DNA of 52,191 nt from Candidatus Thorarchaeota archaeon (GTDB lineage Archaea; Asgardarchaeota; Thorarchaeia; Thorarchaeales; Thorarchaeaceae), in assembly GCA_019057475.1 (NCBI GenBank), contig DXJO01000044.1:1-52191 (forward strand), given 5' to 3'. Under the pieces are notes generated by a model that was not told the DNA's origin, made no database searches, and worked only from the letters and a program-made list of their open reading frames with translations. Shown piece after piece: positions 2,918-19,444 of the stretch (positions are counted from its first letter, which is position 1; every line of letters starts with the position of its first letter). A program made the translations under genes and the position numbers.

Positions 2918-3116
2918 ACCTCATCGCACACCATAGACCCTGTTCACTGTGACCCACCCTCATCTGGCTGCAGATAAGAGAATTCGATTTCCGTCTGCAT
3001 GTGGCATTATTGCAGGATGAAGATATGAATCATACCTAAAGAAGACCTTGGACTCTCTCGTGGGGACCATTGATCACCAGAACGATTACCAACACTAGGA
3101 TTCGAATGCGAAGAAA

Positions 3117-3138
3117 TGGTAGCGGGTGGTCGATTCGA
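3117..3138 (-). repeat. tRNA-Met(i) 3'-end remnant (att-like copy 3), probable left boundary of the integrated element
   Basis: Reverse complement TCGAATCGACCACCCGCTACCA matches the archaeal initiator tRNA 3' end (CCCGCT-A-CCA). All three copies share the flank GAAGAA(A/G)TGGT. Confidence 0.8.
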
Positions 3139-4926: not shown

Positions 4927-5724
4927 CTAACCCCCCCGTTCATTGCTCTCTTGGGAGAATCCCTTTGATTTCACCCCTTTCTTGGGGGAAGCCTCGGGGG
5001 GTAGCCCCCTCTCTTGAGCCTTAGTCTTGGGACGCCCCTTTGTTCTTGGGTCAGATCTTGGGTTGGATATTGGGATATTTGGGTTCGACCTTGAGATGCT
5101 AGGGTCGGACTTGGGTTTAATCTTGGGTTCGACTTTCATCTTGGGACGGTCCTTAATACTTGGGTCAGGTCTTGGATTTGACCTTGGAAAACTTGGGTCG
5201 GATCTTGGGTTCGACCTTGGAATACTTGGGTTGGTCTTGGGACTCTTGGATTGGGTCTTGGGTCCGACCTTTTTCTTGGGACTCTCCTTAATATCCTTAA
5301 CTTTGGGTTCGAGCTTGGGTTGAACTTGAGATACTTGGGTTGGATCTTGGGTTGAACTTGGGATACTTGAGTCGGATCTTGGGTTCGACCTTAAGAGTGA
5401 TGGAAGTGGTCTATCAATCATTACATCGAGTCTTCGAAGTGTCCTTCGTGCCCTCGCTGTGATTCTATATCCTTTGACCCTTTTCCGGGGGTTCACAATA
5501 TCTGGCACTGGTTCTACAAGTTCCGCGTGGAAAAGATCCCCAAGTCCGCCGTCGAAACGCAGAGTGGATGGGGAAAACCCACAGATGGTGGCAATGTCTT
5601 CAAGGGTCATATAGGGTTCACCACTCATAGCCAATGCTGTGAAAGCACGACTGGAAACCCCTTTCTTCAATACTTTGCCAATATCAGCAAGTCGGATCAC
5701 TGAACGATCCTTAGATTCCGTCAT
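4927..5724 (-). CDS. Winged-HTH DNA-binding protein with repetitive P/S/K/R-rich C-terminus (candidate initiator or regulator)
   Basis: MTLEDIATICGFSPSTLR...LGDLFHAELVE...GYRITARAR is a wHTH pattern, followed by PRSNPRSDPS repeats. Divergent from the helicase operon. Confidence 0.65.
   Translation of the reverse strand: MTESKDRSVIRLADIGKVLKKGVSSRAFTALAMSGEPYMTLEDIATICGFSPSTLRFDGGLGDLFHAELVEPVPDIVNPRKRVKGYRITARARRTLRRLDVMIDRPLPSLLRSNPRSDSSIPSSTQDPTQVSQVQPKLEPKVKDIKESPKKKVGPKTQSKSPKTNPSIPRSNPRSDPSFPRSNPRPDPSIKDRPKMKVEPKIKPKSDPSISRSNPNIPISNPRSDPRTKGRPKTKAQERGLPPEASPKKGVKSKGFSQESNERGG
5025..5395. repeat. Imperfect direct repeats (ACTTGGGTCGGATCTTGGGTTCGACCTT) inside the wHTH gene
   Basis: Units at 5158, 5191 and 5365, with partial units at 5045, 5079 and 5224; dense CTTGGG hexamers. 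Confidence 0.8.
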
Positions 5725-5882
5725 AGATCTTCCCTACAAATAGGTAGATTCCTAAAGTTGATAAGATTCCGACGCTAACGGGGTTAAGACGCCTTCTTTC
5801 AGTGAAAGAAGATATGAAAACATATGAAAACATATATTGGGGCTTTGATTGGTCCGATATGTTGTGCCTTGGAAATAAGAAA

Positions 5883-6101
5883 ATGAAAGAAGTCAAAAGA
5901 CCCCCCAGCGTGCTTCTGAGCAGATTCATTGGACCAGAAGATGAGATACTACAATTCTTGAGGGAGATTGAGGAACGCTTTAACATTAAGTTGTATCCAG
6001 ACACACCAAGGATTGATAGACAATATCCTGATTGCGTCAGGATCTACGTTAAGATACCACTTGACAGGCCGCCCGTCAAGAAAGAGGTGTCTGAAGAATG
6101 A
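5883..6101 (+). CDS. Small hypothetical protein, first gene of the replication operon
   Basis: Probable ATG at 5883 (MKEVKRPP). Its stop overlaps the helicase start (ATGA), with an SD-like GAGGTG ahead of the helicase. Confidence 0.6.
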   Translation: MKEVKRPPSVLLSRFIGPEDEILQFLREIEERFNIKLYPDTPRIDRQYPDCVRIYVKIPLDRPPVKKEVSEE

Positions 6102-7630
6102 GTGAGGACATCTTTGTGTCTGATGAAGATGTTGTGAAATCCACCTCTAGCTCTTCCTTAACTAAACGGGGTAGTAGGATTAAGGATTCACCTACCTACA
6201 CCCTAGCCCACATAATTATGAAGAACCGAAGATTCTACACCGATGGTGGGGCTGAATTGTGGATATTCGATGAAACTAAGGGGTTGTGGACACCAAAAGC
6301 AAGGCCTTTCATTCGTAAACAAGCCGTGGCGATGTTGGCTGAAAAGTGGACCAAACACAAGGAGAATGAAATCATAGGGTTCATTCATAGCTCGCGTTTC
6401 GATCCCGATGTGGAACTAGGAAAGCTAAGACATAGGATTGTGTTGTTAAACGGAACCTACGACCTAGATGAGATGGTGTTCCACAATGAGTTCTTTCCTG
6501 AAGAATATCAGACCATACAAATACCAGTCGACTACGACCCCAAGGCCAAATGTCCAAAATTCAAGAAGTTCATGAAAGAGATAATTCCAGACGAATGGGA
6601 TAGATTGTGTATAATGGAATGGTTTGGATATCATCTGTACAAGTCATACAAGTTTGCGATCTTTCTCATTTGTCTGGGAGATGGAGCGAACGGAAAGTCC
6701 ACAATGTTGGCGGTATTGGAGAGGTTCATAGGGAAAGAGAATAGCAGCTCCTGTACGCTGAAACAAATCCTTCAGGACAAGTTCAAGACTGCTCAACTCT
6801 ACATGAAGCTAGGAAACGTTTGTGGGGATGTTTCAAAGACCGGCCTAGCAAAGACTGGCACCATCAAACAATTGACAGGCGGGGATAAATTGACCGCCGA
6901 ACACAAACATCTTCCAGAGTTCAGTTTCTACAACTTTGGTAAGTTGACATTCGCTGCCAATGAACTACCATACAGCTATGACAAGACTTCGGCCTTTCAT
7001 CGAAGGGTAAGGATAATTGAGTTTCTTCGAGTATTCCTAGCTGATGACCCCAACACTAGGGACCAAGATGAATTGATAGATGAGATGACTACCCCCAAAG
7101 AGTTGAGTGGGATCTTTAACGCCGCTCTTGAAGGATGGGAACGACTTAGATCGAAAAGACAATTGACCGGAACAAAGCCAATTGAGGACAATACACTCTA
7201 TTGGACATTGAAGAGTGATCCTGCTGCTTATTTTTGTATGCAATACCTAGTGCATGATACTAAATACCCCGATATCAAAAAGGCGTGGCTCTATGATGTC
7301 TATATCAAATGGAGTCACACCATAGACAAGACCCCTATTAGTAGCAGTTGGCTCTCACGCAAGTTGAAGATAATGGTGCCATTCGCAGAGGACGCGTCCA
7401 GTTCAGGAGGAGCTAGGTATTGGAAAGGATTTCGAGTGGATGAAGAGAAGATGAGGGCAGATCTAAGGGAGTTAGAGGAATCAGGCACCATAACGATAGA
7501 AACGACATATTTTGATCTATTATTCTCATTTATCGAAGGAAAAAAAGAAAATAATATATCAGAAAATGGCGTTCTTGGCGTTTCTAAGAAATTGGATAAA
7601 GTCTTTGATGATGAGGGGGTTGAGTCATGA
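6098..7630 (+). CDS. Superfamily 3 (D5/P4-type) DNA helicase without an N-terminal primase domain
   Basis: D5_N-like IVLLNGTYDL...YQTIQIPVDYDPKAKCPKF, Walker A GDGANGKST, IKQLTGGD, motif C FAANELP, arginine finger AFHRRVRIIEF, and a C-terminal wHTH-like region. Confidence 0.9.
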   Translation: MSEDIFVSDEDVVKSTSSSSLTKRGSRIKDSPTYTLAHIIMKNRRFYTDGGAELWIFDETKGLWTPKARPFIRKQAVAMLAEKWTKHKENEIIGFIHSSRFDPDVELGKLRHRIVLLNGTYDLDEMVFHNEFFPEEYQTIQIPVDYDPKAKCPKFKKFMKEIIPDEWDRLCIMEWFGYHLYKSYKFAIFLICLGDGANGKSTMLAVLERFIGKENSSSCTLKQILQDKFKTAQLYMKLGNVCGDVSKTGLAKTGTIKQLTGGDKLTAEHKHLPEFSFYNFGKLTFAANELPYSYDKTSAFHRRVRIIEFLRVFLADDPNTRDQDELIDEMTTPKELSGIFNAALEGWERLRSKRQLTGTKPIEDNTLYWTLKSDPAAYFCMQYLVHDTKYPDIKKAWLYDVYIKWSHTIDKTPISSSWLSRKLKIMVPFAEDASSSGGARYWKGFRVDEEKMRADLRELEESGTITIETTYFDLLFSFIEGKKENNISENGVLGVSKKLDKVFDDEGVES

Positions 7631-7851
7631 GCATCAGCCATTATCGAGGATTCTCAACTGAAATCCTGCTCAGGTGGAAAAGGGATCTAGAATATGAGGC
7701 ATCGAACTGGAATCGCAGAATCAAGGAACAACATACAAGAAAATTCGATCCCATATTTCAAACTGTGACTGAGTACAAGAACAGAATCCGTGATTGCCGA
7801 AGGTCCATCAAACAGATTGACAAGGTTCTTGCCGAGAGGGGGATGGTGTGA
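7627..7851 (+). CDS. Small basic helical hypothetical protein
   Basis: Translationally coupled between the helicase and the Topo VI-A-like gene. Confidence 0.6.
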   Translation: MSISHYRGFSTEILLRWKRDLEYEASNWNRRIKEQHTRKFDPIFQTVTEYKNRIRDCRRSIKQIDKVLAERGMV

Positions 7852-9675
7852 ATGGGTAAGCGAACCAAATTCAATGATGTCACGAAGAGGCTACTGGCTG
7901 AGCGTTTGGCGCATGTCAAGAAAGGATTCTTGCCCCCGTTCTCCGATATGAGGCACTTCTTCTATGAGTGTAGAAATGTGTTGCTCCGAGAGAACCCCGA
8001 TATGTTGGGGCCTGATGGCGGTGGTAAGGAACCATATAGCAATTGGTTGGGCATGGTAGCTAGATGGTGTGACAAATACACCGAGGACTTTGGCATTTCT
8101 GAAGGGCTTTGGTGGCGTGTCAGAGAGAGATTGAACCTTTTTGCTAAGGCTAGGGCAACCTGTGAAGGGGTTGAAGAGAAGTTTCTAGTGGACAAGAAGA
8201 CCAGACACAAAATAGCTAAGGGTTGTAGTTTCATTCTAGTCTGTGAGAAAGAAACCGTGACTAACGAATTAATGGCGAAGTTGCAGAATGAAGATTATTT
8301 ACTCAATGTTGTAGCGACTGGTGGAAAGACTACATCTGATGTCCAAGAGGCTGTATTGTCTATAGCTGAAGACCTAGGTGAGGCTCAAAATTTCTATGTT
8401 CTGGTTTTGCATGACTATGACCTAGATGGTGTGGGGATATATTACAAACTGAAGGAGCGATACAAAAATGCCATTGATGTTGGGGTCGGCCCCTCTTTTA
8501 TCAAGTTCTTGAAGAAGAGAAAAAGCATAGATCTTAGATTGGTCGAGGAACAGAAGCTGAATATGATTAATAGAGATTGGGTCAAGGAACATATGTTGTC
8601 GCACGATGAATACTCATTGTCTGATTTTGAGTATCTTTATGGTGAACCATACCAAGTTATTGTTAAAGGAAAGGAGAAGACTTACCACAAAGGCCGAAGA
8701 ATCGAGATCGATGCCATTCACGTACAATATGGCATAAAGCCGTTCATTGATTACATTCTGAAGCAAATCAAAAAGCGTTGCACGGTCTGGGATCTGACGA
8801 GGATTGGAGTGAACAAAGACGGTTATGTTTTTCAACTTCACAATCCTGATTGCAGATTCGAGGAGAGAATGGATGGACATGAAGATCCCGACTACATCAC
8901 ACCCATAGAGAAGATAGAAGAATGTGAGCTGCCGTTTAACTACGCCTATGCAGTGAGGAGTGTATGGAGGTATTTGGATCGGATATTAAAGCCCCCCTTT
9001 GATAGTGCTAAAGAGAAGCTTCAAGACCTAGTTGATTCAGTGAGTTCGGTGGTTCAAGACGATGTCATACATGAGAATTATGAAGAGTTTCAATCTGTGT
9101 TGGACGAGTATAAGGAGCTGGAGAATCAATCAGAATCCATCATAAAGCAGGCAACAGATCTTGAAGGAGAAACCAAGGGCGATCTTGTGCAATTGAAGGA
9201 AGAGATTGAGAAGGATATCTCAGCCCTGAAGGATGTGGTGGATACAGACATTTCAACCCTGCGGAATGACTTCGAGAACGATTTCGACATGGATTGGATT
9301 GAATCTCATCGTGAAGAACACCAAGACATTATTGACCAGATCGAAAACTATGAAGGAGATGTCCGAAAAGGGAAAAAGGATTTGATAGGTCGAGTTGAGA
9401 AGATACAAGAGAAGATGGAAAACGGGTCAAAAAACAATCCCCGATATGATGAGTTCCATACCAAGTTAGAAGAACTAGAGCAGAAACACTCAGAAGAACA
9501 AAAACAGGTCGATGCTAAGGTTGATGAGGGGATAGAACAAATGGACTCCAAGTGGGAGGACTTCGACTCCAAAGAAGAACTGATTGAAGACTTTCAGGGG
9601 CTAGATGAGAAACGCATTCTGGAGTTGATAGTTGAGGTGCTACAAGATCGATTGAAGGAGTTGGTTGAAGAATGA
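7852..9675 (+). CDS. Spo11/topoisomerase VI subunit A-like protein fused to an acidic coiled coil
   Basis: Colinear family motifs: MRHFFY (catalytic Tyr position), RERLNLFAK, FILVCEKE (Toprim Glu), VVATGG, LHDYDLDGVGI (DxD), DVGVGPS and RIEIDAI. The C-terminal ~250 aa is E/D/K-rich and heptad-like. Confidence 0.8.
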   Translation: MGKRTKFNDVTKRLLAERLAHVKKGFLPPFSDMRHFFYECRNVLLRENPDMLGPDGGGKEPYSNWLGMVARWCDKYTEDFGISEGLWWRVRERLNLFAKARATCEGVEEKFLVDKKTRHKIAKGCSFILVCEKETVTNELMAKLQNEDYLLNVVATGGKTTSDVQEAVLSIAEDLGEAQNFYVLVLHDYDLDGVGIYYKLKERYKNAIDVGVGPSFIKFLKKRKSIDLRLVEEQKLNMINRDWVKEHMLSHDEYSLSDFEYLYGEPYQVIVKGKEKTYHKGRRIEIDAIHVQYGIKPFIDYILKQIKKRCTVWDLTRIGVNKDGYVFQLHNPDCRFEERMDGHEDPDYITPIEKIEECELPFNYAYAVRSVWRYLDRILKPPFDSAKEKLQDLVDSVSSVVQDDVIHENYEEFQSVLDEYKELENQSESIIKQATDLEGETKGDLVQLKEEIEKDISALKDVVDTDISTLRNDFENDFDMDWIESHREEHQDIIDQIENYEGDVRKGKKDLIGRVEKIQEKMENGSKNNPRYDEFHTKLEELEQKHSEEQKQVDAKVDEGIEQMDSKWEDFDSKEELIEDFQGLDEKRILELIVEVLQDRLKELVEE

Positions 9676-9854
9676 GTTACTACAGCAGCCGAAAGCTGAC
9701 TGAAGAAGAGAAGGCCGAACAGAGCAAAAGGTTTGACGCCATCATAGATTCCTTCATCGATGAGACAACATCTTCTGAAGAGGTCAAACCGAAGATCCCT
9801 GTCAAGAAGCCATCACTGAAGAAACAAAAGAGTCTGGATGATATCTTCTCATGA
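9672..9854 (+). CDS. 60-aa microprotein with C-terminal PIP box
   Basis: Ends KQKSLDDIFS (Q-x-x-L-x-x-I-F); ATGA overlap with the upstream gene; abuts the PCNA-like gene. Confidence 0.7.
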   Translation: MSYYSSRKLTEEEKAEQSKRFDAIIDSFIDETTSSEEVKPKIPVKKPSLKKQKSLDDIFS

Positions 9855-10607
9855 CTAAAAACTGCCGAGACTGCTGAGCATGTAGGTCAACATGTAGTCC
9901 TTTGAACGCTGTGATAGTATCATTGCATCCTTTCTTAGTGTCAACCAGACTTCGGTTTTGGGTCCGAATTGGTTTATGATTTTGTCGAAGAGATATTTTT
10001 CAAAAAGCATCTCTGTGTCACCCAGCATCTCACGTAGCACCTTAGTCCTGCTGGGAGTGATAACCTTTCTGAACTTTCCTACATCCTCGGCGAATACAGA
10101 CAGTTGTTTACCATCGCAGGTAAATAACAGACGGTCCACTTTCGGCAAGCCAATCAGGATGTCTGCTTTGACCAATATCTGAACCACGGGGTCTAGATCC
10201 TTCGGCAACAATCCCATAGTCATGTGAGCTACGAAGGGGAAGGGGATCTCACAGAGTTCAGCCTCAACAAACGGCTCTTCGTAGTCTTGCCATTTGCCCT
10301 GCAAATAGATCTTGTCCTTCTTGGTTCTTATCTCGACCTTCTCTTCTTTTTTGAAGCTATCCTTCATGATGTCAAGTAATGACTTTGAGAACGGGACCTG
10401 TTCCCCCTCCTTAGCCTCAAACTCCAAAAAGTATTCGGACGAGAAGACGGCATTGACAGCAAGAGCCTCAAGGGTAATGTCTTTGAAGACTACTCCTTTG
10501 GCACTGAACACGCCAACGTGAGCGTCTAGCAGCGCAGGTTTCCCGTGGCACACTAACACGTTCACCAGCAAGCGCTGAAGTCGCTCTGGTTCAACAATTG
10601 CTTTCAT
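9855..10607 (-). CDS. Divergent PCNA-like DNA sliding clamp
   Basis: 250 aa with a two-domain clamp pattern: MKAIV..L..LL, VFSAKGVVFK, FSSEYFLEFE, FEKYLFDKII...VWLTL...MIL...LTYMLS. Confidence 0.7.
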   Translation of the reverse strand: MKAIVEPERLQRLLVNVLVCHGKPALLDAHVGVFSAKGVVFKDITLEALAVNAVFSSEYFLEFEAKEGEQVPFSKSLLDIMKDSFKKEEKVEIRTKKDKIYLQGKWQDYEEPFVEAELCEIPFPFVAHMTMGLLPKDLDPVVQILVKADILIGLPKVDRLLFTCDGKQLSVFAEDVGKFRKVITPSRTKVLREMLGDTEMLFEKYLFDKIINQFGPKTEVWLTLRKDAMILSQRSKDYMLTYMLSSLGSF

Positions 10608-11392
10608 GATTTGTCCTTCTTTGTTTCTTTAGCTTCGATATCTCTAACGACTATGTGAGATTTGTTCAATATTGGGCTCTGAATTGGTCTGATGGTGACT
10701 TTCACTCCTCGATACCAGTCCTCGGGAATGGTCGTTGTTATTGTCCATTCGCCATTCTCATTCTTCACAGGATCGAGAACCTTTGACTCACTCAATCTGG
10801 GAGGACTGAAAGATTTGACGGGACTCCCGCCGAATTCCCACTCCCTCAATTCAAGAAAGGCTCTCTCGACAGAGATATCCCCCCTCCTCGCCCTCAGCCT
10901 CAGATCTTCGGAGCCATTCTCTTCAATACGTTTCACTCTTCGCAGGGTTGTGTGACTGATTCCCACTCTCTTAGCAGCTTTCACATCGGCCCGACCCTTG
11001 ACCTTCGTAAAGTCCTTTACGGAGGTCTTGTCCATCAGATCGGTTCTGATTCCCTTTCTCTTCTTGGCGATCTTGCTCTCAACTTCCAGAAACTTCAGAG
11101 CTACTAGCCCCTTGGAATAGGTATTCAGCTGCCGTCGCAGAACATTGTCCTTGATGGCATACTCAATCATCTTCGACCTGTCTTTGAACTTCTTGACAAC
11201 ATAGGGCGGCGCAATTCCCAGCTCAAGTGCTATCTTGTACCTCTGATGACCGCAGACGATTGTCCCATCCTTAGCCACAATCAAGGGATCGCGGATGCCG
11301 TTCTTCTTGATGTCCCTCCTCAGTTCCTCATAGGTCCATTCCTCTAGACCCTCGAACAGAGCAGCTATCTTCTTGTCAATCCTAAGCTTCAT
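10604..11392 (-). CDS. ParB/Srx N-terminal domain protein with HTH
   Basis: LRRDIKKNGIRDPLIV...IVCGHQRY (ParB boxes), DNVLRRQL, and HTH AAKRVGISHTTLRRVK. Confidence 0.85.
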   Translation of the reverse strand: MKLRIDKKIAALFEGLEEWTYEELRRDIKKNGIRDPLIVAKDGTIVCGHQRYKIALELGIAPPYVVKKFKDRSKMIEYAIKDNVLRRQLNTYSKGLVALKFLEVESKIAKKRKGIRTDLMDKTSVKDFTKVKGRADVKAAKRVGISHTTLRRVKRIEENGSEDLRLRARRGDISVERAFLELREWEFGGSPVKSFSPPRLSESKVLDPVKNENGEWTITTTIPEDWYRGVKVTIRPIQSPILNKSHIVVRDIEAKETKKDKS

Positions 11393-11608: not shown

Positions 11609-11746
11609 GTGAACTTGAAACGATTAAATATTGTGTTCGAAGACGATGATTTTGATATCCTCCGACGGGCCAAGGGCGAAGATACTTGGGCAGAGGCCCT
11701 AGTCAAGTGGGCCAAAATTGTACTGAAGGAAGCGAAGTCCAAATGA
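11609..11746 (+). CDS. Ribbon-helix-helix (CopG/antitoxin-like) small regulator, 45 aa
   Basis: Not in the ORF track: MNLKRLNIVFEDDDFDILRRAKGEDTWAEALVKWAKIVLKEAKSK. Beta-strand plus two-helix pattern; ATGA overlap with the next ORF. Confidence 0.7.
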   Translation: MNLKRLNIVFEDDDFDILRRAKGEDTWAEALVKWAKIVLKEAKSK

Positions 11747-11961
11747 TTATGGTCGATGTAAGTGAGATTCAATACCATGAGAGTATCATCAGAATACACC
11801 TCACTGAGGAACAAGCTATCATGTTGGTAGCAGCGATCGAATTGAACATGAAGAAGGTTAAGGGAGATTGCAAAGGTATCGAACTGATGACGATTCTCAA
11901 ACTTGTTGAAAATAAGATCCGCGTGGGTCTATGGAAAGAGGGGGATGAGTCCAGTGATTGA
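11743..11961 (+). CDS. Small hypothetical protein (72 aa)
   Basis: ATG at 11743 is coupled to the RHH stop codon. Confidence 0.55.
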   Translation: MIMVDVSEIQYHESIIRIHLTEEQAIMLVAAIELNMKKVKGDCKGIELMTILKLVENKIRVGLWKEGDESSD

Positions 11962-15232: not shown

Positions 15233-15505
15233 GTGAATGAAATGGCTGAAATTGGAACGCCTACGAAATCCACACCACCGGATATGAACAAGAGAGAACG
15301 CAGGTCCACAGCCTGCGCCCTATGTGTCTGGATCGTCATACTTGCCTACTGTTGGGTATTTTCCACAACGGAAGTTCCATTAGAGAACATGAGTATCGGC
15401 GAATTGACCACTCGATTGATAATGTTGCTCATGTCGTTGTTTGTAATTTTCTTAGCAATCTACAAGATAGGGAGGGCGCTATTGAAACTCTACAAGCACA
15501 GGTGA
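15233..15505 (+). CDS. Small two-TM membrane protein
   Basis: Two hydrophobic helices and a basic C-terminus. Confidence 0.6.
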   Translation: MNEMAEIGTPTKSTPPDMNKRERRSTACALCVWIVILAYCWVFSTTEVPLENMSIGELTTRLIMLLMSLFVIFLAIYKIGRALLKLYKHR

Positions 15506-18316: not shown

Positions 18317-19444
18317 CTACTCAGCCAACGCCCGAGTAAGCGCTGTCATAATCATATCAGCATCCCATTCAGCTTTGATAGCCTTGCCACCGCCTACACC
18401 ACGAGTCAGGTCTTTCATCTTTTTGGCAGTGATGTGTCTCGACAACTCTCGTTTGAGAGCATCTATCATGGACTCTTGACGGTCCACTTCCAGATAGCGC
18501 AGAGCACTGCGGTACTTCTCCTTGAGTAATGATATGGCGTCCTCGTCAATGTCGGCCAATCCACTGTATCGAGCAGGCATTTTGTCTAGTCCCGCCTTGT
18601 GTCCCATCAGGTATTCAGCCTCGGCTTCATCGAGTGCTCGGCCAATGTTCTTTCTGAAGTACTTGCGCAGGCCATACACTCGAAATCGCTTGAATGATTC
18701 GCCAGTGGGGTGCTTACCAGTGATGTTATCGACCAGACGGTTGAAGTAGCATCTCAAAGTGTTCGTCAACAAAGGCATCCCCGTTATGCTGACCACGTAG
18801 GACTTGGCTTTGAATCTCTCGCCTTTGGACCGTCTAAGATCTAAAAGCTGTTTCAGATACTTAGTGCCTTCGGGGGACAAGAAGGTGACGTACCAATCTC
18901 CTGTCTTTCGTTGCTTGAGCTTGATTGATAGGATATCATCATTCTGCGACAAAGACCTGCTGATGTTCTCGTATCTAAGGTTACAAACATCGACTGGCCT
19001 CATTCCGCTGTAAGCTATCAATGAGAATGCGACCTTGTATTTGAGCTTGGCCTGTCCGAGAATCATCTTCAGTACATCCTTGTTTGGAATGTAGTCGAAG
19101 TAGACTCTACTCTTTGGGATGTCCCGCGGCTTGATTCGGATATGCTTTCTGTTGTCACCGAACCACCTGCAAAGGGCATTCCAAGCCTGCTTGAGGGTGT
19201 TACCGGATAGGGGATCGAAGTCCCTGCCTAATTTCTTCGACATAACGAAGTGATATTCACTCTGCAAGTACAGCAGAAAGTCTTCCATTCTGTCTTCTGT
19301 CTTCTCTAGGTCCCATTTCAATGTGGCATTGGGGCTGGCTTCGCAATATTCACAGAACCTTTCAACCCAATCGACATAGATACCTTTGGTCTTAGGGTTC
19401 CGGATTCGTTTCTTCCATCTTATCCATTTGTCTTTTGACGACAT
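18317..19444 (-). CDS. Tyrosine recombinase/integrase
   Basis: YSGMRPVD (R), QRKTG (K), YGLRKYF (H/YxxR), YLMGH and ARY (catalytic Tyr); full length and not split. Confidence 0.92.
   Translation of the reverse strand: MSSKDKWIRWKKRIRNPKTKGIYVDWVERFCEYCEASPNATLKWDLEKTEDRMEDFLLYLQSEYHFVMSKKLGRDFDPLSGNTLKQAWNALCRWFGDNRKHIRIKPRDIPKSRVYFDYIPNKDVLKMILGQAKLKYKVAFSLIAYSGMRPVDVCNLRYENISRSLSQNDDILSIKLKQRKTGDWYVTFLSPEGTKYLKQLLDLRRSKGERFKAKSYVVSITGMPLLTNTLRCYFNRLVDNITGKHPTGESFKRFRVYGLRKYFRKNIGRALDEAEAEYLMGHKAGLDKMPARYSGLADIDEDAISLLKEKYRSALRYLEVDRQESMIDALKRELSRHITAKKMKDLTRGVGGGKAIKAEWDADMIMTALTRALAE

Follow-up and report, generated by a model that had tools for sequence, protein, structure and literature searches.

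Archaeal viruses and plasmids exist that encode a sliding clamp without a clamp loader or a polymerase. Among Asgard archaea, capsid-less elements of the 10H_0 and 7H_42-like types carry PCNA and mini-A, joined in 7H_42-like elements by an SF3 helicase; they are 44–85 kb in size and encode primase-helicase fusions or Orc1, and the portion of their account on which we draw, and by whose description we compared them with our locus, describes no PIP microprotein (bioRxiv 10.1101/2021.07.29.453957). A 20.8-kb Atabeyarchaeia plasmid encodes a primase-helicase, a mini-topo VI, a tyrosine integrase, ParB and an RHH protein, with no PCNA reported, whereas the element described here has a clamp; the Opia, Nidhogg and Skoll viruses have PCNA-like genes, and the Opia PCNA falls within an Asgard clade, whereas our clamp lies far from the host PCNA (PMC11529989). 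Thermococcus kodakarensis has a second, non-essential clamp, PCNA2 (TK0582), which is proposed to have been laterally acquired and stimulates PolB (PMC3984812); PCNA2 is recognisable as PCNA, whereas our clamp shares ~15% identity with it and has no LAP motif.

Small clamp ligands provide a second point of comparison. TIP, the Thermococcales inhibitor of PCNA (PDB 5da7), resembles the 60-aa protein described here in its small size, non-canonical PIP and amphipathic helix, but its PIP is followed by a 17-residue helix that breaks the ring, whereas the helix of the 60-aa protein precedes a terminal motif (PMC6204406). We found no homology between the two, and the 60-aa protein does not fall among TIP-like PCNA inhibitors. 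In T4, gp33, gp55 and gp43 are tethered to the clamp gp45 by their C-termini, where a variable linker bears a short epitope of acidic and hydrophobic residues (PMC2988020), much as we propose below; T4 is, however, a bacteriophage with its own loader and polymerase, and the likeness seen is one of layout. Publications already cover Asgard elements that combine PCNA, mini-A and an SF3 helicase, as well as a small PIP-bearing PCNA inhibitor; a limited open-literature search found no account of a motif-bearing ATPase of this clamp family, a ParB–clamp fusion, or a free PIP microprotein encoded next to a clamp of this kind.

The locus lies on contig C24 of a 3.34-Mb genome (G000; 96% complete), the whole 52,191-nt stretch analysed being referred to here as the window. 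The presence of tRNA-Sec, numerous small-GTPase paralogues and the one-family class point to a Thorarchaeia-type Asgard archaeon as the host. The genes for the clamp and the 60-aa protein sit in an integrated mobile element together with an integrase, a D5 helicase, a TopoVIA-like gene and ParB (Table 1), in keeping with an earlier claim that the clamp is element-encoded. Read depth is 38–42x throughout, flat across the element and its flanks, and equals chromosomal depth. No att sites, no direct repeat between the flanks and no tRNA were found at the element, nor any excised form among the contigs. We found no polymerase, primase or clamp loader in the element, whose D5-like helicase leaves too little space at its N-terminus for a primase domain, and the host has one ordinary PCNA, on contig C18 (19470-20222). 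The TopoVIA-like protein (607 aa; 38 homologues), which the preliminary description had called Spo11-like, has the TopoVIA/Spo11 fold by Foldseek, and as a stand-alone TopoVIA fold on a mobile element it resembles Topo mini-A; no TopoVI B subunit was detected among the window genes scanned. A scan for promoters and terminators gave chance-level results, with a bacterial consensus applied to an archaeal host. The locus offers a small testable set, comprising the host PCNA, an element clamp ~19% identical to it, a candidate ligand of 60 aa and a motif on the Sak4-like ATPase that may be cognate to the clamp. This set bears on the docking code that such clamps may have of their own and on the way in which an element without a primase draws on the Asgard replisome.

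Table 1. Features of the element and of related loci. Positions are those of the window unless a locus is named.
Feature	Position	Strand	Evidence
Small ORF (95–99 aa), first of helicase operon, without family	5802..6101	+	ORF list, Pfam
D5-like SF3 helicase	6098..7630	+	Pfam D5_N (aa 50–163) and DUF5906
74-aa ORF, helicase operon	7627..7851	+	Weak match to transcription-regulator family
Stand-alone TopoVIA/Spo11-fold (mini-A-like) protein, acidic coiled-coil C-half	7852..9675	+	Foldseek E 6.8e-8 to TopoVI A 1d3y
60-aa protein, C-terminal PIP-like tail QKSLDDIFS	9672..9854	+	ATG start, ORF list and gene callers
Clamp-binding-like motif: last 12 codons and stop	9816..9854	+	11/12 aa identical to L033
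Divergent PCNA-fold sliding clamp, 250 aa, mobile-element family	9855..10607	-	Model, Foldseek, family profile
ParB-like protein with HTH	10604..11392	-	Pfam ParB_N 1.4e-5, PHROG 1.6e-17
Tyrosine integrase, probable right part of element	18317..19444	-	Pfam Phage_integrase 4e-7
Sak4-like AAA_24 ATPases upstream of clamp	L001:8954-9997, L034:2125-3582, L066:8955-10004, L069:3917-5278, L083:2916-3962, L084:1389-2447		

The sequence contains both ORFs with abutting stops, as originally reported: the TGA of the 60-aa gene (9852–9854) is followed at a gap of 0 by the TAG of the clamp gene (9855–9857, minus strand). The 60-aa gene is the last of the helicase–TopoVIA-like operon, its start overlapping the stop of the TopoVIA-like gene in an ATGA with a purine-rich RBS, like the operon's other junctions, and the same protein is called by the NCBI, JGI and Logan gene callers. 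The source assembly contig, which is not independent of the window, crosses the junction with no variants. Both genes are real, and the pair is built from known kinds of parts. The 60-aa protein consists of an amphipathic helix at residues ~19–29, where the helical hydrophobic moment is strong, a Pro/Lys-rich linker and a terminal motif that follows the helix by ~25 residues. The preliminary description gave the end of the protein as QKSLDDIF; the motif is present, but the true end is QKSLDDIFS, with a final Ser that had been omitted. A search of 400 Asgard genomes with the 60-aa protein returned low-complexity matches only, an Atlas search gave no usable match, and the tail as a DNA pattern had 0 matches in viral contigs.

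Measured against the canonical PIP box (Q-x-x-h-x-x-aromatic-aromatic), the tail has the Q, the L and the F at position 8 but carries Ile at position 7, placing it outside the canonical class. It does have the features of non-canonical archaeal cPIPs, namely a terminal S/T-L-D/E-D/E-h-F, basic residues ahead of it and a flexible linker, and it is in register with the Pyrococcus abyssi PolD cPIP KKRVISLEEFFS, which lacks the Q and has been crystallised on PCNA (PMC7101311). In the tail as in this DP2 motif, a flexible linker leads to basic residues and a C-terminal S-L-D/E-D/E-hydrophobic-F-S, with a dispensable Q (PMC7101311); unlike the PolD cPIP, the tail is carried by a free 60-aa element protein rather than an enzyme, and has Ile at the first aromatic position. 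Within the host, it resembles the C-terminal PIPs of FEN1 (QSTLSDFF), a probable NreA (QRTLEEFY) and a DUF72-like protein (QTSLDEF), and the PolB C-terminus is a Q-less FTTLDQFF. When the 18,304 six-frame small ORFs of the genome were scored against five host C-terminal PIP tails, the tail ranked sixth; a loose PIP pattern matched 11 of these ORFs, and a strict pattern, defined after the motif was seen, matched the 60-aa ORF alone. Likeness to host PIP tails and to the PolD cPIP thus upholds the earlier assignment of a PIP-like tail. The host PolB (G000 C26:33049-35859) is PIP-like at both ends, with QSTLDDYF near its start and the Q-less tail at its end, and a putative DP2 on G000 C54 has no obvious cPIP.

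That the 250-aa protein is a PCNA-like clamp, as also proposed at the outset, is confirmed by its structure and its family. Its monomer model (pLDDT 95.8) has a two-domain fold over ~250 aa that matches archaeal PCNA in Foldseek at TM 0.77–0.79 and E 5e-14 (Atlas TM 0.82), with PCNA2 of T. kodakarensis (3lx2) as the top match, and the profile of its family (130 relatives) matches T. kodakarensis PCNA1 over its full length (E 5e-13, positions 21–246). Single-sequence searches miss this kinship, and the clamp sequence by itself has no match to Pfam PCNA. It is identical to the host PCNA at 48/250 positions (~19%), falls into a clade separate from host PCNAs with support of 100/100, and carries LSS in place of the LAP seen in the host PCNA and in the 16 relative PCNAs inspected, which sets it apart from cellular archaeal PCNA orthologues. 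Because LSS replaces LAP, the element clamp would probably be a poorer fit for a Q-bearing PIP. Its nearest relative, at L001, is 74% identical; a profile comparison of the TopoVIA-like proteins of the window and L001 was not significant. Unique changes in the window clamp and its sister number 17 vs 5 with the nearest outgroup and 12–15 vs 8–12 with others, and these site counts do not uphold, at that size, a ten-fold difference in branch length. The family occurs in one other of 400 Asgard genomes, where a whole 16-kb contig of 36% GC (L069; G117:C79) carries SSB, a Sak4-like ATPase, the clamp and a primase and is binned in an Asgard genome of another family; this contig is a fragment of a large replicon, the sole such case among the 400 genomes. 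Word-based searches of IMG/VR, JGI metagenome contigs and phage records found no such clamp. Weak clamp-profile matches in 25 Thorarchaeia-like genomes were rejected as relatives, being host PCNAs. Two Thorarchaeia-like genomes, G055 and G053, have tandem duplicated host-type PCNA genes (L028, L022).

At L001 the clamp follows an SSB-like gene and a Sak4-like AAA_24 ATPase and precedes an AEP primase, an order repeated with small inserts in L034, L066, L069, L083 and L084 and partly in L030; no clamp loader was seen in L001, L034, L066, L069, L083 or L084. Because its nearest relatives recur in this order, the window clamp was, to judge from gene order, most likely captured from a large SSB–Sak4–clamp–primase replicon. 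The recurring partner of the clamp is ParB, adjacent twice and fused once. The clamp and ParB genes share four bases in the window and are translationally coupled, and at L031 a ParB 43% identical to that of the window follows the clamp. A Bathyarchaeia element encodes a 473-aa fusion of a ParB-like part, HTH domains and a clamp-like part of this family (L047:7617-9038, the same in L053:3322-4743), recognised by profile only (E 1.9e-10); the fusion lies between a TopoVIA-like homologue and a D5 helicase, beside an integrase. The repeated ParB–clamp link, fusion included, may be a more general lead.

Despite its integrase, TopoVIA-like gene, ParB–clamp fusion and D5 helicase, the L047 element has no homologue of the 60-aa peptide, which is likewise absent from ~17 distinct TopoVIA-like family loci whose downstream sequence could be read. 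The peptide is therefore not a core part of the module, and we rejected it as a fixed partner of the TopoVIA-like gene. With ParB as the partner of the clamp and the peptide missing from these ~17 loci, the abutting stops mark the place where two convergent operons meet. The clamp occurs without the peptide at L001, L030, L031, L032, L034, L066, L069, L083 and L084, several of them short contigs, and in fused form at L047. The pair thus shows little of the co-occurrence across elements that the preliminary description had named as a check: the clamp is widespread without the peptide, and the junction is shared with L033 alone.

L033 is an independent 650 bp contig, 86% identical to the window in DNA, on which the opposite-strand tail ends KPKSLDDIFS, with Q replaced by P. 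The C-half of its clamp is 82% identical to that of the window and the N-half is absent, and its peptide ORF is interrupted by an in-frame stop, which lies 30 codons upstream and only 4 nt short of the end of the contig. This copy may be decayed or misassembled, given the in-frame stop at the contig edge and the missing clamp half. Identity with the window is 11/12 over the last 12 residues and 6/17 over the linker (Fisher p 0.003), and the two linkers differ by one in-frame codon. L033 shows that the arrangement predates this genome but is weak evidence of selection; because the sole known homologue looks decayed, conservation of the tail may reflect shared descent, not selection. We rejected the change of Q to P as proof against binding to host PCNA, with which it is compatible because the PolD cPIP (PMC7101311) and the host PolB tail are also Q-less.

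Our best reading, which we favour tentatively, takes the 60-aa protein as a tether with two ends that joins element proteins to a clamp, the host clamp being the likelier one. From the observed ORFs, folds, neighbourhoods and motif similarity we infer its expression, its binding, the identity of the clamp and the partner of its helix. The protein would be produced together with the helicase operon of the element. At its C-terminus the motif, flanked by basic residues, would form a short helix seated in a clamp's hydrophobic pocket, and the amphipathic helix near the N-terminus would bind an element protein, at a guess the D5 helicase, the TopoVIA-like protein or a neighbour. Because no polymerase, primase or loader was found in the element, the likeliest useful target would be host PCNA and the enzymes on it, and cross-binding of the tail to the element's own clamp is plausible. 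The clamp would have been acquired separately, with ParB, from a large SSB–Sak4–clamp–primase replicon, and would lie tail to tail with the peptide because the two operons converge there. Likeness to host PIPs, a motif kept better than the linker in L033 and translation coupled with the helicase operon argue for this tether, whereas the Ile at position 7, the single, decayed-looking homologue and the absence from ~17 TopoVIA-like loci argue against it. Of the two arms of the original proposal, the adaptor fits the anatomy best, and a toxin/antidote or host-clamp-blocking role is unsupported. A complex prediction for the clamp and the 60-aa protein scored 0.08 against a mark of 0.32 and was used neither for nor against binding.

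The Sak4-like ATPases offer another view of the tail. In 6/6 loci with a readable gene start upstream of this clamp family, two of which were gathered after the motif idea was set down, the ATPase begins with a hydrophobic-D/E-D/E-hydrophobic-F motif (MDDVF, LDDIF, LDEIF, LEGLF, FDDLF and LEELF) that the tail of the 60-aa protein resembles. No host ORF (0/2,743) starts with a motif of this type, and it is absent from a distant ATPase in a locus without this clamp. The tail might accordingly be imagined as a ligand cognate to the clamp family that the element itself encodes, replacing a lost Sak4-like ATPase arm and acting as a tether or a decoy regulator, which we regard as possible, if unlikely. 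Besides the ATPase motif, such a role would suit the two peptide sightings, both beside this clamp lineage (2/2) and nowhere else, but the sightings share ancestry, as their DNA identity indicates, and the ATPase loci are related, not independent. Moreover, the ATPase motif is N-terminal and usually continues x-E-F, and its partner could be SSB, primase or the ATPase itself. Apart from the N-terminal acidic-hydrophobic motif, which is conserved, the ATPases are marked by a long acidic arm, and many of them carry another acidic motif of FF type.

A different account would make the pair a relic, with a leftover or weakly selected tail and a captured clamp that is drifting. The broken L033 copy, the surplus of unique changes in the window clamp over its sister, the lack of peptide relatives in 400 Asgard genomes and a clamp pN/pS of 0.45 vs L033 against 0.26 vs L001 would all fit such decay. 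Both pN/pS values are nevertheless below 1, every ORF of both operons is intact with coupled junctions, and the motif is seldom expected by chance and more conserved than the linker, so that we consider a relic distinctly unlikely. Similarly little probability attaches, in our estimation, to the idea that archaeal mobile elements have a private clamp-motif system made up of this clamp family and its partners, in which the LDDIF-type motif of the ATPase would be the clamp's own docking code, the 60-aa protein would, as a stand-alone adaptor, read both codes and so bridge or switch host and element clamps, and the clamp would be re-used with ParB, adjacent or fused, as a sliding DNA platform.

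It is quite improbable that the tail recruits host primase, instead of or besides a clamp, and so supplies the primase missing from the D5 helicase. The similar PolD cPIP does prefer primase over PCNA (Kd 4 vs 49 uM; PMC7101311), the helicase lacks room for a primase domain and the donor replicons carry a primase beside the clamp, yet this is an argument by analogy only, and the Q at position 1 suits a PIP better. Finally, the two genes could form a toxin/antidote or hijack pair, with a TIP-like block of host PCNA by the peptide and its rescue or replacement by the element clamp. The peptide recalls TIP in size and in PIP-plus-helix composition (PMC6204406) and the element clamp is distant from host PCNA, but such a pair is very improbable: the genes lie in separate convergent operons rather than in the co-transcribed, co-occurring two-gene module of a toxin-antitoxin system, and the TIP helix follows its PIP whereas the motif here is terminal. 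An element that is integrated at chromosomal depth and has neither polymerase nor loader needs host PCNA. The clamp is found in the company of ParB or of SSB, Sak4 and primase, L033 is the only other locus read in which the peptide stands beside it, and there both genes look broken together.

Several further observations concern the surroundings of the element and the rest of the genome. Divergent from the helicase operon, a 265-aa protein (4927-5724, minus strand) has an HTH-like N-terminus and about ten imperfect SNPRSDP-type repeats. A 28-bp repeat occurs in the window at 803-830, 893-920 and 3110-3137 and on C18 at ~68296, 69406 and 71139; its reverse complement resembles a tRNA 3' end, with no tRNA reported by ARAGORN or Rfam, and loose contig ends lie at 922 and 3112. 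These repeats may be integration scars or a small repeat family. Another element-like contig with a second D5 helicase carries a 270-aa ORF (G000 C17:3157-3969) that is unmatched by the clamp-family and host-PCNA profiles, and no PIP-like small ORF was seen near it. A second element region of the genome has a D5 helicase and a broken TopoVIA-like homologue with an internal TAG (C51:78698-80752 and 93264-94048). Two small genes of the window (11609-11961 and 15233-15505) have homologues that are near neighbours on G000 C12:640-2471, which suggests the remnant of a related element.
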